A stretch of DNA of 64,000 nt from Escherichia phage vB_EcoM_3HA11. Both the position numbers and the translations under genes were made by a program. The stretch lies in sequence record MN342150, one strand, 5' to 3'. Shown one piece after another: positions 17,198 to 41,151 of this stretch; position 1 is the first letter of the stretch, and each line of letters starts with the position of its first letter. The notes beneath the pieces were generated by a model. That model was not told the origin of the DNA. It saw nothing but the letters and a program-made list of their open reading frames with translations, and searched no databases.

Positions 17198-17276
17198 ATA
17201 CGATAGTTTATTGAAACCCTTTACTCAACATGGTGAGCCGACTATCATTTTATCCAATGAAATAAGGAGAATCACC

Positions 17277-17966
17277 ATGAAACGTTTAATCCTCGGGGTT
17301 GTGCTGGCAGGTCTGGCATTACCCGCCACCGCCAAGCTGAACTCCACAGGTGACAAACTGTGGTCTGATCTTTCCTACTGTGCTGGGTTCTCCCAGGCGG
17401 TCGCTATCGACAAGTCCGGTTCCATAGAGAATTTCGCTGAACTTTGGAACACGGGTAACGTCTCCACTGCTGTTGTTAATGCTGGGATTGAGTTCAACCG
17501 TTACAAACAGGGAGCCTACAACTTGAAAGGCTACCTGAATGACGATGAATTTAACCGAGGAGGCATGGAGGCTGGCGATCTCATCATGACTGGCCGTATG
17601 GGCACACAAGGCCGTATGACTGTAAGGCAATGCCGTTCTCTCCCCTCTCCGGCATTACAGAAGGGTGTGCAAATCGGGCGTCGACATTTGGATCTGATCA
17701 ATGATGGCAACCAATGCATCAAGGTGTTTGAATATAGTGCCGACCAAGAATCAGATCGACGTTTGAAAAAGGAATGGCGGACACGTGCCCTTGGATTGAG
17801 AGCATGGCTCGTAGAAAATGATTATTACTATGAGGATCGTGTTCAGAACGGATTGAAAGATCTTTCCACTAATTTGTCTGTCAATCTAGACGACCCAAGG
17901 CTTTCGCGTGAACTCAAGCAAACACGGATTGACTGCGACAATATGATGAAGGAGAACGAAAGATGA
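17277..17966 (+). CDS. secreted/periplasmic protein with signal peptide
   Basis: Start at internal ATG with strong RBS AAGGAG; N-terminus MKRLILGVVLAGLALPATA is a classic Sec signal peptide. Confidence 0.6.
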   Translation: MKRLILGVVLAGLALPATAKLNSTGDKLWSDLSYCAGFSQAVAIDKSGSIENFAELWNTGNVSTAVVNAGIEFNRYKQGAYNLKGYLNDDEFNRGGMEAGDLIMTGRMGTQGRMTVRQCRSLPSPALQKGVQIGRRHLDLINDGNQCIKVFEYSADQESDRRLKKEWRTRALGLRAWLVENDYYYEDRVQNGLKDLSTNLSVNLDDPRLSRELKQTRIDCDNMMKENER

Positions 17967-18283
17967 GAAACATAATATTCTTGTTATTCTTTTCTATGTT
18001 GGCATCATTCCAAGTTATGGCAACTCCGGCTAGCAAATTGAATATCTGTGCGGCCTGGTTGTCTACTTATCAACAATTTCACCCTGATGATAAAGATACA
18101 TCCATCCTTTTATCAGATTATGAAGGTGAGTTGAAACGCCTTGATCTCTACAGCGTGGATCAAATAGAGAATGCTTTGGATTTGCCAATGATGGAGTCCG
18201 CTGCCGACAATAGCAAACAGACGATCAAAGATCTGACTATGTGTCGGGAAATAGCGACTAATTTCGTTGGAAATCAAAGATAA
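17963..18283 (+). CDS. small secreted protein with signal peptide
   Basis: ATGA stop/start overlap; N-terminal hydrophobic signal MRNIIFLLFFSMLASFQVMA. Confidence 0.5.
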   Translation: MRNIIFLLFFSMLASFQVMATPASKLNICAAWLSTYQQFHPDDKDTSILLSDYEGELKRLDLYSVDQIENALDLPMMESAADNSKQTIKDLTMCREIATNFVGNQR

Positions 18284-19296: not shown

Positions 19297-19309
19297 TTCA
19301 ATAACATTA

Positions 19310-19340
19310 GGGCGGTTATTATTAAACCGCCTTTTATTTG
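19310..19340 (+). terminator. rho-independent terminator
   Basis: GGGCGGTTattattaAACCGCCTTTTATTTG. Confidence 0.55.
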
Positions 19341-20023: not shown

Positions 20024-20311
20024 ATGTCCGGCGTATGGTGTGATGTATTATTAGTGAGATTTTCAAACGGGATGGATAATCAGATCATTTCATTCTTTTA
20101 TCCTGTCCCTTTTTCTTCGATGGGCCTGACCGTCAAGCGCGTTCTTGACATAGAAGAAAAACTCAACGCCATGCCGTATATGGCGCGACCACACGTGCTG
20201 GGTTGTGAACTGTTAAACGAAATGATGATCGATGAGAATCTTGTTGAAACAATTATCACGCGTGAACAGATGAAAACCATACTGGCTCAGGGAGAACCCC
20301 ATGTCGAATAA
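20024..20311 (+). CDS. hypothetical protein (95 aa)
   Basis: RBS GGAGGTG. Confidence 0.5.
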   Translation: MSGVWCDVLLVRFSNGMDNQIISFFYPVPFSSMGLTVKRVLDIEEKLNAMPYMARPHVLGCELLNEMMIDENLVETIITREQMKTILAQGEPHVE

Positions 20312-20621
20312 ACCGTTTGAACTTAAATTTCGCGTTTGGCATATTCCCCAGGTTCCTGGGATCGCTTTTCATGTTGAGGTTCCAACATTTGAAGAAGCGC
20401 AGCGCCTGAAGAATGCTCTGGGCGATTATGATTTGTTCCAGTTCAACAACAATATCAAGCCGGATTATTGCAATGCTTCGGGCATTCAGATTTATCAACA
20501 TGATCTGACCGATGATGATCTTAATGATATGGGTCTGGATGATCGTTGGGTTGATATGGAAGATGTTGACGAACTTAACGATTATTTCGAGCATCTGCGC
20601 AGTACAGGGTGGGAAATATGA
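20301..20621 (+). CDS. small acidic protein (106 aa)
   Basis: RBS GGGAGAA; Asp/Glu-rich C-terminal half (DDDLNDMGLDDRWVDMEDVDELNDYFEHL). Confidence 0.5.
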   Translation: MSNKPFELKFRVWHIPQVPGIAFHVEVPTFEEAQRLKNALGDYDLFQFNNNIKPDYCNASGIQIYQHDLTDDDLNDMGLDDRWVDMEDVDELNDYFEHLRSTGWEI

Positions 20622-20926
20622 TTTCAAAATATATTGTAAAGCCTGGGGATACTCTGTCCAGCATCGCTCTAAAATTATATGGGGATGCCCAACAGTATAT
20701 CAAATTAGCCAGATTCAACAATATCCAAAACCCAGGCCATATCACGGTTGGTCAGGTTATTTGTTTACCCACACCTGTCGAAGACAAAGAACACATTATG
20801 ATTCCGGTTCAACCGACACAGAAGTGTTTGGATGCGATAGCTGGTTTATTTCGACCAGGTTTTTGTGATGGAACTATTGAACGTCACATTTATCAAGCGA
20901 TTGTGGAAAACGCAGGTGTAAAATGA
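20618..20926 (+). CDS. LysM domain protein
   Basis: YIVKPGDTLSSIALKLYGDAQQYIKLARFNNIQNPGHITVGQVICLP matches the LysM consensus. Confidence 0.65.
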   Translation: MISKYIVKPGDTLSSIALKLYGDAQQYIKLARFNNIQNPGHITVGQVICLPTPVEDKEHIMIPVQPTQKCLDAIAGLFRPGFCDGTIERHIYQAIVENAGVK

Positions 20927-21132
20927 ACGGATTAATTCGTTACCTGTTCATATTCGTAATTTCAACATTCATTTTATTTTTCTTTTTCAAATACTTGAAA
21001 GAGACTAAAATCTACCGAAGTAAACGTTGGCGCAAACGGGTGAGGGTAACTTTCCTGCTGCTGATTTCTTCGGTTACAATAACCGCACTCACATTGGGTG
21101 CATATATCTACATTTTTGAAGGGGTACATTGA
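20923..21132 (+). CDS. small membrane protein
   Basis: 69 aa with two hydrophobic helices; ATGA overlap with the LysM gene. Confidence 0.45.
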   Translation: MNGLIRYLFIFVISTFILFFFFKYLKETKIYRSKRWRKRVRVTFLLLISSVTITALTLGAYIYIFEGVH

Positions 21133-21923
21133 TGTTCAAGAAATTGGTGTTCGGTGCAATTATGGTTCTGGCTGCAAGTCTACTTTCTGGTTGTGGTGGC
21201 GTTATCGATGAAGGTAATGTCGGCGTTCGCACCCAATGGGGTGAAGTAGACATGAACCCTGTAACAGCGGGGATCTACACCAGCTTTGTTTCAAGCGTGG
21301 ATGTTTACACGACCAAAGAAGCCGTTGTGAGTCTGACTAAAATGACGCCAAAGGCCAAAGACAACCTGACTCTGGAAGACTTGGATGTGGATGTTTATTA
21401 CACACCCAATGTCGCAAAGGTTCCGTGGTTCCATACCAAATTTGCTGGCCAGAGCGCTGAACTCGATGATGGCACGATAGCGGTGGGTTTCAATCTAGTT
21501 AAAACTGCTGCAGCATCTTCTTCGATGGACGCCGTTTCTTCTCTTGATTCTATGACAATTCACACCCAACGTGCTGAATTAGAGAAGATGATTAAAGACC
21601 GCACTCAGCAACAATTAGAGACTGCTGCGCCTGGCATGTTCACAATCACACGCGTGTTGGTCAAAAAGGCGCTGACGGATCCTTCTATTGAGCAGTCTAT
21701 CCGTGATAATGTTATGGCGGACAAACGATTGGATACGGCAAGAAAGAACGTTGAAATTCGCGAGCAAGAAGCCCAAGCGAACCAGAAACTGACCACTTCG
21801 CTGACGCCTGAATATCTTCAACATGAATATAACATGGTATTACAATCATGTGCCAATAGTGGAAAATGTACTCTGATCGTTGACGGATCCGGCTCAGGTA
21901 AAATGCTGAACGTCGGCAAATAA
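21129..21923 (+). CDS. SPFH/Band-7 domain lipoprotein
   Basis: Lipobox LLSGC after a signal sequence; IDEGNVGVRTQWGEV and following region resemble the SPFH (HflC/prohibitin-like) domain. Confidence 0.55.
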   Translation: MMFKKLVFGAIMVLAASLLSGCGGVIDEGNVGVRTQWGEVDMNPVTAGIYTSFVSSVDVYTTKEAVVSLTKMTPKAKDNLTLEDLDVDVYYTPNVAKVPWFHTKFAGQSAELDDGTIAVGFNLVKTAAASSSMDAVSSLDSMTIHTQRAELEKMIKDRTQQQLETAAPGMFTITRVLVKKALTDPSIEQSIRDNVMADKRLDTARKNVEIREQEAQANQKLTTSLTPEYLQHEYNMVLQSCANSGKCTLIVDGSGSGKMLNVGK

Positions 21924-40356: not shown

Positions 40357-41151
40357 ATGGCCATTCTAAAACTTGGCAACCGAGGTTCTGAAGTCAAAGC
40401 GCTTCAACAAAGCCTCAACAAAATCGGTTTCTCCCTTACAGCCGATGGCATATTTGGTAAAGCAACAGAGAATGCTGTCAAATCCGTTCAGGCAGGTGCT
40501 GGATTGGTTATTGATGGTATTGCTGGGCCAAAGACCTTCTATGCTATCCGCAACTCTGGAGACGCTCATCAGGAACATCTGACCGAAGCGGACTTGGTTG
40601 ACGCAGCACGTGAACTTGGTGTTGAGCTGGCCAGTATGAAAGCTGTGAATCAGGTAGAATCCCGTGGCACGGGTTTTACCAAAACCGGCAAGATCAAAAC
40701 TCTGTTTGAGCGCCACATCATGTACAAAAAGGTGACGGCCAAATTCGGACAAGCAAGAGCCAATGCTCTGTACCAACTCTACCCAACATTGGTTAACCCC
40801 AATTCTGGCGGGTATATCGGCGGAGACGCGGAGTTGGAACGCCTTCAGGGTGCAATCGCCCTTGACGAGGACTGCGCTTACGAGAGTGCTTCCTACGGCC
40901 TATTCCAGATCATGGGGTTCAACTGCCAAATCTGTGGATATCCAAATGCCAAAGAGATGTTCACTGATTTCCTGACTGGTGAACGCGCTCATCTTCTGGC
41001 ATTTGTCAAGTTCATCAAGGCTGATGCCAATATGTGGAAAGCCCTGAAGAACAAGAATTGGGCCGAGTTTGCTCGTCGGTACAATGGTCCGGCATATGCG
41101 AAAAACCAGTATGATACTAAACTGGCGGCAGCATACAAGAGTTTCTGTTAA
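40357..41151 (+). CDS. endolysin: peptidoglycan-binding domain + N-acetylmuramidase-like catalytic domain
   Basis: RBS GGAGG. N-terminal LKLGNRGSEVKALQQSLNKIGF ... DGIFGKATENAVKSVQ is a PG_binding_1 repeat; C-terminal region (LFQIMGFN, YNGPAYAKNQYDTKL) resembles the muramidase family. Confidence 0.7.
   Translation: MAILKLGNRGSEVKALQQSLNKIGFSLTADGIFGKATENAVKSVQAGAGLVIDGIAGPKTFYAIRNSGDAHQEHLTEADLVDAARELGVELASMKAVNQVESRGTGFTKTGKIKTLFERHIMYKKVTAKFGQARANALYQLYPTLVNPNSGGYIGGDAELERLQGAIALDEDCAYESASYGLFQIMGFNCQICGYPNAKEMFTDFLTGERAHLLAFVKFIKADANMWKALKNKNWAEFARRYNGPAYAKNQYDTKLAAAYKSFC

Follow-up and report, generated by a model that had tools for sequence, protein, structure and literature searches.

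Do genes that run into one another through overlapping stop and start codons also work together? Positions 20618-21923 of Escherichia phage vB_EcoM_3HA11 (MN342150), a Vi01-like Kuttervirus (Ackermannviridae), raise this question. In the 64,000-nt window that we analysed (the whole stretch of DNA, one strand), this locus encodes a LysM protein, a small membrane protein with two transmembrane (TM) segments, hereafter the hairpin, and an SPFH/Band-7 lipoprotein. An earlier reading, made from the letters alone (the sequence-only reading), described the three genes as one coupled envelope cassette, possibly acting in superinfection exclusion, lysis timing or interference with membrane-bound defence proteins. 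The three open reading frames (ORFs) are indeed tightly coupled, the LysM/hairpin junction being an ATGA overlap and the hairpin/SPFH junction a TGATG overlap, and the domain assignments given to the three products are borne out by the searches reported below. The single functional unit is not: the LysM gene is separable by its distribution, and the conserved module that comparison of loci brings out is one of two genes, those for the hairpin and the SPFH lipoprotein.

The hairpin and SPFH genes across phage lineages

Homologues of the SPFH protein at 33-80% identity were collected from metagenomes, IMG/VR and genomes, and their loci were grouped into lineages, defined as clusters at 80% identity or above. 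Scripted scoring of the SPFH N-terminus and of the upstream ORF yielded 27 lipobox-type and four TM-anchored clusters. In 25 of the 27 lipobox lineages, a two-TM ORF of 55-73 amino acids (aa) lies directly upstream, with a distance of -4 to +41 nt between its end and the start of the SPFH gene; in the one exception in spacing (+205 nt), a small ORF stands between the two. The background over the rest of these loci is 0.013 hairpin-like ORFs per 300 nt. All 25 pair-carrying lineages are phages or prophages, with SPFH identities down to ~35%, and the two lipoprotein lineages without a hairpin are contigs of bacterial metagenome-assembled genomes. None of the four TM-anchored lineages (three bacterial chromosomal contigs and one IMG/VR viral contig, L048) has the hairpin.

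For example, Erwinia phage phiEa2809, which belongs to another Ackermannviridae genus and has no LysM gene, encodes an SPFH protein 54% identical to that of the window, and an unannotated 64-aa two-TM ORF ends exactly at its start. Pair carriers also include a T4-like contig, in which the pair follows rIIA-rIIB, and uncultured phages of ~110 kb. Moreover, pairwise distances between hairpins and between SPFH proteins are correlated (Mantel r 0.43, p 2e-4), as expected from co-divergence. No third conserved partner gene was found over the 25 lineages beyond lineage-specific synteny (an RNase T-like gene in the ~110-kb group).

Other arrangements were noted at individual loci. In the cyanophage Synechococcus phage B3 (L006 2776-2940; ~23% identity), the gene of a TM-anchored SPFH protein is immediately preceded by a two-TM ORF of 54 aa that begins with MLAR, and Acinetobacter phage Ab15 (L005 4357-4524; ~23% identity) has a two-TM ORF of ~55 aa two genes downstream of a lipoprotein SPFH gene. 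In the T4-like contig, the SPFH gene is followed by a gene for a 242-aa protein (L009 5889-6617; phrog_27316) that has TM segments at its N-terminus as well as a long helical stretch, and that was not seen beside the pair in other lineages. In the ~110-kb group, a gene for a soluble protein of 65-73 aa (MRT..VLxPGDxIREKLTG..., no Pfam family) is coupled upstream of the hairpin gene (L007 5602-5799, L008 5575-5796).

The SPFH lipoprotein

The SPFH gene (21132-21923, + strand; 263 aa from the ATG; Vi01_108c, CBA120 orf126) matches Band_7 (PF01145) with E 3e-13 (50.6 bits against a cutoff of 23.6; aa 24-216) and phrog_200 'lipoprotein' with E 1e-58. By tblastn the protein is found in 169 records, against 156 for the hairpin and 49 for LysM (the latter at 95% identity or more), and a family profile retrieves 1058 representatives at E <= 1e-3, 106 of them at E <= 1e-30, from a library of 1.84 billion proteins. 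The protein is expressed, as three of its peptides were detected by mass spectrometry in a Sajous1 virion preparation (PMC10892097).

Its N-terminus, MFKKLVFGAIMVLAASLLSG-CGG, reads as a signal peptide followed by a lipobox (21132-21194, + strand, with the Cys21 codon at 21192-21194). The segment MFKK-LVFGAIMVLAAS-LLSG-C conforms to the lipobox rule [LVI][ASTVI][GAS]C, Cys21 is invariant across 12 aligned homologues (alignment A2), and lipoboxes are found in the 27 lineage clusters and in 73 of 93 full-length family representatives. The protein is thus predicted to be lipidated at Cys21. Only 2-4 residues separate this cysteine from the first SPFH strand. Near the other end, a C240/C246 pair, invariant in the close lipoprotein subgroup (A2) and missing from the aligned TM-anchored relatives, fits an oxidising periplasm.

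The AlphaFold2 (AF2) model of the single chain has a predicted local distance difference test score (pLDDT) of 84. After the SPFH domain come a helix of 40 residues (184-223), another helix (226-242) and a low-confidence C-tail (aa 253-263); the latter is compatible with folding that depends on oligomerization, which it does not prove. The SPFH1-SPFH2 fold, long coiled-coil helix and C-terminal cap segment that characterize the superfamily are all recognized by AF2 and Foldseek. In Foldseek, the whole chain is matched by cage subunits of prohibitin, erlin, HflK/C, stomatin and QmcA (E 1e-13 to 1e-8, 14-18% identity), HflK/C-FtsH and QmcA-YbbJ (PDB 8z5g) among them. As a search of the PDB with the family profile returned no significant solved structure, we regard the family as a divergent SPFH subfamily whose likeness to solved SPFH proteins is structural only. 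Judging from these fold matches, the protein may form a large ring or cage on the membrane.

Bacterial TM-anchored relatives (such as P0047, P0051, P0054 and P0058) are 33-39% identical over the SPFH and coiled-coil regions and share the predicted orientation. Basic residues precede their TM helix, which predicts an N-in anchor and an SPFH domain outside, as in HflK/C. They differ from the phage protein in carrying the TM helix in cis, in lacking both an upstream hairpin and the C-terminal Cys pair, and in being stand-alone chromosomal genes.

A phage ring of this kind could be a mimic of HflK/C that captures or shields FtsH, or another inner-membrane protease or channel, and thereby changes protein turnover. 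HflK/HflC is likewise a periplasm-facing inner-membrane SPFH assembly, an orientation that the lipoprotein signal and the N-in anchors of the bacterial relatives suggest for the phage protein too; the model matches HflK/C over its full length, coiled-coil wall included, as well as the HflK/C-FtsH structures; and some sources already label the protein 'regulator of protease activity HflC'. However, the family profile reaches HflK and HflC at E 0.35-0.93 only, as it does unrelated proteins, and Foldseek ranks prohibitin and erlin equally well. The phages have a single SPFH gene rather than the two paralogous subunits of HflK/HflC, without the specific sequence similarity of that family, and where HflK/HflC have an N-terminal TM helix, the phage protein has a lipid anchor and a hairpin encoded by another gene. 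Finally, no FtsH-related gene neighbours the pair at any locus. We consider such mimicry quite unlikely.

The hairpin protein

The hairpin gene (20923-21132, + strand; 69 aa; Vi01_109c, CBA120 orf127A), frequently left uncalled in annotations, encodes two hydrophobic segments by hydropathy (~aa 1-27 and 40-65). Its product matches phrog_11680 (E 6e-46) and no Pfam family at E <= 0.01. It is found at 97% aa identity or more in 156 Kuttervirus records, and tblastn gives matches in Kutterviruses only.

The loop between the two segments is strongly basic (KYLKETKIYRSKRWRKRVR), and the C-tail is short and acidic (EGVH). The same bias runs through the 25 hairpins, in which loops contain 121 K+R vs 37 D+E, and C-tails 6 K+R vs 19 D+E. 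All follow a common design: a short N-tail ending in Arg/Lys, TM1, a basic loop, TM2 and a net-acidic tail of 0-5 residues, often E/D-x-x or DH-I-F. Hairpins thus retain their length and this architecture at a mean identity of only ~19%. Under the positive-inside rule, basic loops are cytoplasmic, and on the strength of this charge bias we place the loop in the cytoplasm and predict an N-out/C-out topology with both ends in the periplasm. In the 69-aa hairpin of the window, the two TM segments and the loop leave a 4-residue tail. The protein would therefore show almost nothing outside the bilayer, save a few residues at the membrane surface.

The LysM gene as a separable neighbour

The LysM gene (20618-20926, + strand; 102 aa; Vi01_110c) has a genuine LysM domain (PF01476, E 1e-11, 45 bits against a cutoff of 20.9; aa 5-51), which AF2 models as an E-H-H-E fold at pLDDT 81-87, and the two-helix module that follows reaches only 45-56. 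The fold is a peptidoglycan-binding one, but the protein has no signal peptide or hydrophobic segment that would take it to peptidoglycan, and no catalytic domain, be it muramidase, amidase or peptidase. The label 'endolysin' that it bears in GenBank and PHROG is wrong, since there is only a LysM domain and a 40-aa two-helix module.

With a peptidoglycan-binding fold supported by Pfam and AF2, and translational coupling to the two genes that follow, the LysM protein could be the tether to peptidoglycan of a three-gene envelope cassette acting in exclusion or lysis timing, an extension of the sequence-only reading. The distribution of the gene largely refutes this. Only 49 of ~170 Kuttervirus records have LysM at 95% identity or more (tblastn). 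The CBA120 clade lacks it, the gp17-like gene (orf127) being coupled straight to the hairpin gene (orf127A), followed by the SPFH gene (orf126); in the aligned junctions, LysM is an indel the size of one gene, cleanly bounded on both sides by ...AAATGA... stop-start overlaps. Conversely, Klebsiella Taipeivirus phages carry a gp17-like gene followed by LysM (58% identity), with neither hairpin nor SPFH gene. Among the 25 pair-carrying lineages, a LysM homologue lies within 4 kb of the pair in Vi01-clade Kutterviruses only and in none of the other 24. The LysM protein forms just three clusters at 90% identity among 5.8 billion proteins. The text and tables of the Sajous1 mass spectrometry paper (PMC10892097) do not name it.

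The C-terminal module points elsewhere. Kuttervirus and Klebsiella phages share its 40 residues (IPVxPTQKCLDAIAGLF..GFCDG.IER.IY) almost unchanged, and it is the LysM domain that varies. The conserved core (aa ~62-95; 20801-20905, + strand) is fused onto the C-terminus of DUF7425 in the Agtrevirus phages EspM4VN and ZQ1 (fused copies at L015 2225-2674 and L016 2249-2689). DUF7425 is a cytoplasmic protein, encoded two genes upstream of LysM in the window. Both this fusion and the missing export signal associate LysM with the genes upstream and not with the envelope pair, and the fusion suggests that the LysM protein docks on DUF7425 in the cytoplasm. LysM is an independently mobile neighbour, linked to the DUF7425 and gp17-like genes and outside the hairpin-SPFH unit, and a three-gene cassette is very improbable.

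Natural deletions of the pair

Eight independent isolates of the GG32 lineage (GG32, STP07, kage, Liang dang 541, SeHz-1, SF02, STP55 and BRM 13314) carry a 749-bp in-frame deletion of the pair that leaves LysM intact. The deletion joins hairpin aa 1-17 to SPFH aa ~198-263 in a chimera of 83 aa (STP07, L004 3450-3701). In SeSz-1, STP-4 and SP1, the pair is intact and the flanks are 99-99.6% identical to those of the deletion phages. Deleted and intact phages at 99% flank identity thus make up a natural knockout set. Because the deletion is tolerated in nature, the pair is dispensable for propagation and accessory, which argues against an essential lysis function and fits an accessory role.

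A lysis function could take two forms: the hairpin might be a class II holin or antiholin, or hairpin and lipoprotein might make a non-canonical two-component spanin. The hairpin is small and has two TM segments, a gene for an inner-membrane protein adjoining a lipoprotein gene resembles Rz/Rz1, and Gly at position +2 points to an outer-membrane lipoprotein. Furthermore, spanin defects are mild in the laboratory, so that the natural deletions are compatible with a spanin role. There is also a vacancy to fill, since the announcement of phage Mooltan reports no reliable identification of holin and spanins in this phage type (PMC6486243). Nevertheless, the eight natural isolates still propagate without both genes. 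The hairpin has the two TM domains of a class II holin without its charged cytoplasmic C-tail or its adjacency to the endolysin, and it has no periplasmic domain, which in an i-spanin would be a coiled-coil. The lipoprotein is a 263-aa SPFH fold and not a short proline-rich o-spanin. As for location, the sequence-only reading had rightly kept this locus apart from the endolysin gene, which is real (40357-41151; PG_binding_1 and Muramidase PF11860, E 3e-58): the pair is 19 kb away from it, in the gp17-like string and beside HU and helicase genes, and the T4-like carrier holds the pair besides T4-type genes. We hold a lysis function to be improbable. The narrower candidate, the hairpin as the missing Kuttervirus holin, was rejected on account of the natural deletions and the tail features.

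In Salmonella phage bering (L023 4001-4174), the SPFH gene is broken by a frameshift and annotated as two SPFH fragments; the break may be an error of sequencing or else an inactivation that arose independently of the GG32-lineage deletion.

A putative phage SPFH scaffold

Pairing, architecture, fold and dispensability form the observed basis for a mechanism, whose steps we infer as follows. The SPFH protein would be exported by Sec and lipidated at Cys21, as its signal peptide and lipobox suggest. It would then sit on the periplasmic face of the inner membrane and oligomerize into a ring or dome of the HflK/C, prohibitin or QmcA type, in line with its alignment to such proteins over the whole chain. 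Through the TGATG junction, synthesis of the hairpin would keep pace with that of the SPFH protein, and the hairpin would insert in the inner membrane with both ends periplasmic and the basic loop cytoplasmic, as the charge bias predicts. There it might serve as the membrane-spanning part, which chromosomal relatives possess as an N-terminal TM helix in cis and canonical SPFH operons as NfeD. During infection, the assembled pair would enclose a patch of inner membrane like a fence. With moderate confidence, we favour this reading of the pair as a phage two-gene module, with a periplasm-facing SPFH ring on the inner membrane and the hairpin as its membrane-spanning subunit.

The closest analogy is with SPFH-NfeD operons (QmcA/YbbK-YbbJ and YqiJ-YqiK in E. 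coli, YuaF-FloT in B. subtilis). As in these, the SPFH gene lies tightly and co-directionally next to the gene of a small membrane partner, in 25 of the 27 lipobox lineages. The QmcA-YbbJ cage consists of 26 heterodimers (PMC13086221), and stop-start coupling of hairpin and SPFH genes fits a similar 1:1 production. However, the phage partner, with 55-73 aa and two TM helices, has no room for the OB-fold of NfeD and lacks it. Moreover, QmcA faces the cytoplasm, whereas the phage SPFH protein is lipid-anchored and, by prediction, periplasmic, and the pair is phage-encoded. The superinfection-exclusion proteins Imm and Sp of T4 and Llp of T5 are also small envelope proteins of virulent phages, Imm being a small two-TM inner-membrane protein and Llp a lipoprotein, but they show no detectable similarity to the hairpin (tblastn) and no SPFH fold. 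The most apt description of the module is an SPFH membrane scaffold in a split, lipid-anchored form that is specific to phages.

Several points weigh against the favoured reading. The first concerns sorting. In enterobacteria, lipoproteins are retained in the inner membrane by Asp at +2, and those with another residue are normally sorted to the outer membrane. The SPFH lipoprotein has Gly at +2, and the 73 lipoprotein-type representatives include 22 with G, 22 with T, 12 with S and a single one with D; sorting to the outer membrane, away from the inner-membrane hairpin, would thus be expected. Its placement on the inner membrane derives from the hairpin partnership only: a hairpin without a periplasmic domain could meet the SPFH protein only at the surface of its own membrane. 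Secondly, hairpin identity between lineages is 8-22%, near noise, so that common ancestry of the hairpins rests on position and architecture. Thirdly, the Cys pair occurs in only 13 of the 73 lipoprotein-type representatives, and we downgraded it as a general periplasmic marker. As to role, PADLOC has no match for any of six proteins scanned, NCBIfam has nothing for the hairpin or the SPFH protein, and the rIIA-rIIB synteny, considered as a functional clue, was discarded because it is found in one lineage only. The evidence thus favours no single biological role firmly.

The sorting argument leads to another explanation, in which the SPFH protein is an outer-membrane exclusion lipoprotein of the T5 Llp or phi80 Cor kind, blocking a receptor or passage through the periplasm, and the hairpin only helps its assembly or export. 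Gly at +2 with no Asp retention signal is what this explanation predicts, and exclusion lipoproteins of virulent phages have precedent. The precedents themselves fit poorly, as Llp and Cor are small monomeric proteins without an SPFH fold. The lipoprotein is also strictly co-conserved with a hairpin that is placed in the inner membrane and hardly protrudes into the periplasm, which is difficult to reconcile with an outer-membrane location. An HflK/C-like protein of a Pasteurella multocida prophage island, which can be likened to the phage protein by description only, has been reported in outer-membrane vesicles (PMC9872710). On the other hand, Kutterviruses bind capsule or O-antigen through their tailspikes (PMC6486243), which leaves no known protein receptor to mask. 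We see little probability in this explanation.

Returning to an inner-membrane scaffold, the pair most likely conditions the envelope of the infected cell. Among specific roles, we rank first membrane protection or support of lysis timing, in which the pair would keep the inner membrane whole and energised when it is threatened by premature lysis or by abortive defences that act on membranes. A block of DNA entry by superinfecting phages is slightly less likely, followed by an FtsH-directed HflK/C mimic and then by a holin or spanin role in lysis. More speculatively, the phage-made periplasmic cage could enclose a host membrane machine such as FtsH, a membrane-acting defence effector or a DNA-entry channel; we view this as possible, albeit unlikely. 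If true, it would represent a virus-made membrane compartment and a new exclusion or counter-defence device, conserved across Ackermannviridae, T4-like phages and uncultured ones.

Structures of SPFH cages (HflK/C, prohibitin, erlin, stomatin, flotillin) are recent, and little is understood of the clients of these cages. In phages, SPFH genes have been noted since 2006 without a proposed mechanism: they are mentioned in the T4-like phages RB43, 44RR and Aeh1, the Schitoviridae phage GIB1 and Burkholderia phage CSP3 (PMC1524935, PMC13239085, PMC10269572), their presence is merely noted (PMC3220722; PMC1524935) or stated as unexplained (PMC13239085), and in the literature on virus-encoded SPFH genes we found no mention of an upstream hairpin partner. 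Matches in BFVD include SPFH proteins of giant viruses. A compact and dispensable module, with a 60-aa hairpin split off from a lipid-anchored scaffold, offers a tractable system for studying the effects of SPFH fences on membranes. For Kutterviruses, which serve in biocontrol of Salmonella and E. coli O157, the module is also a defined candidate for exclusion or protection at the level of the envelope.

Genomic context and annotation

The 2-kb region around the pair is matched by 175 records, nearly all from Kuttervirus, and is 99.5% identical in Salmonella phages Vi01 and SJ2. The equivalents in Vi01 are Vi01_111c (gp17-like, 'superinfection exclusion'), Vi01_110c (LysM, 'endolysin'), Vi01_109c (hairpin, uncharacterised) and Vi01_108c (SPFH, 'lipoprotein'), and the SPFH gene is followed by HU and helicase genes. 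Two records are named after other hosts (OR844945.1, Enterococcus phage Efm 3-10, and MN871475.1, Pseudomonas phage Pa-sanjiao) and carry Kuttervirus sequence at 97-98% protein identity, probably through contamination or mislabelling.

The gene immediately upstream of LysM (20301-20621, + strand) encodes a gp17-like protein (PF17420, Pfam E 6e-52) labelled 'superinfection exclusion gp17'. P22 gp17 works against a Fels prophage exclusion system (PMC6486243). The GenBank label belongs to this upstream PF17420 gene and is misleading, as P22 gp17 counteracts exclusion; several GenBank records also put it on neighbouring genes. The corrections to be made in annotations are accordingly that LysM is not an endolysin, that the often uncalled hairpin should be called, and that 'superinfection exclusion' denotes a neighbouring anti-exclusion homologue.

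The LysM ATG overlaps the gp17-like stop as ATGA, and in CBA120 the gp17-like stop overlaps the hairpin start instead. Further upstream, orf222, DUF7425 and the gp17-like gene are equally tightly packed (1-nt spacer, 11-nt overlap, ATGA), which gives a six-gene string, orf222 - DUF7425 - gp17-like - LysM - hairpin - SPFH, after a terminator-like hairpin. As the same packing continues upstream, gene overlap does not single out the LysM, hairpin and SPFH trio. A scan of the region for sigma-70 promoters and terminators gave promoter counts not above those of shuffled sequences and a sole plausible terminator, at 19309-19333 (+ strand; 9-bp stem with 5 GC pairs and a T-run, consensus match only). 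The top sigma-70-like match of the region (TTGATA-18-TATAAT, 11/12) lies inside the LysM gene on the minus strand (20674-20703). The T4-type late promoter TATAAATA has two chance-level matches, both far from the locus, Rfam has no match in the whole window, and a literature search for Ackermannviridae transcriptomes yielded nothing usable.

Finally, two other envelope-directed genes lie upstream, at 17274-17966 and 17963-18283. They overlap by 4 nt and both products have cleavable-looking signal peptides. The protein encoded at 17963-18283 matches phrog_3843 'Rz-like spanin', yet is without a TM anchor. In phiEa2809, secreted homologues of the two proteins are encoded upstream of the hairpin-SPFH pair.

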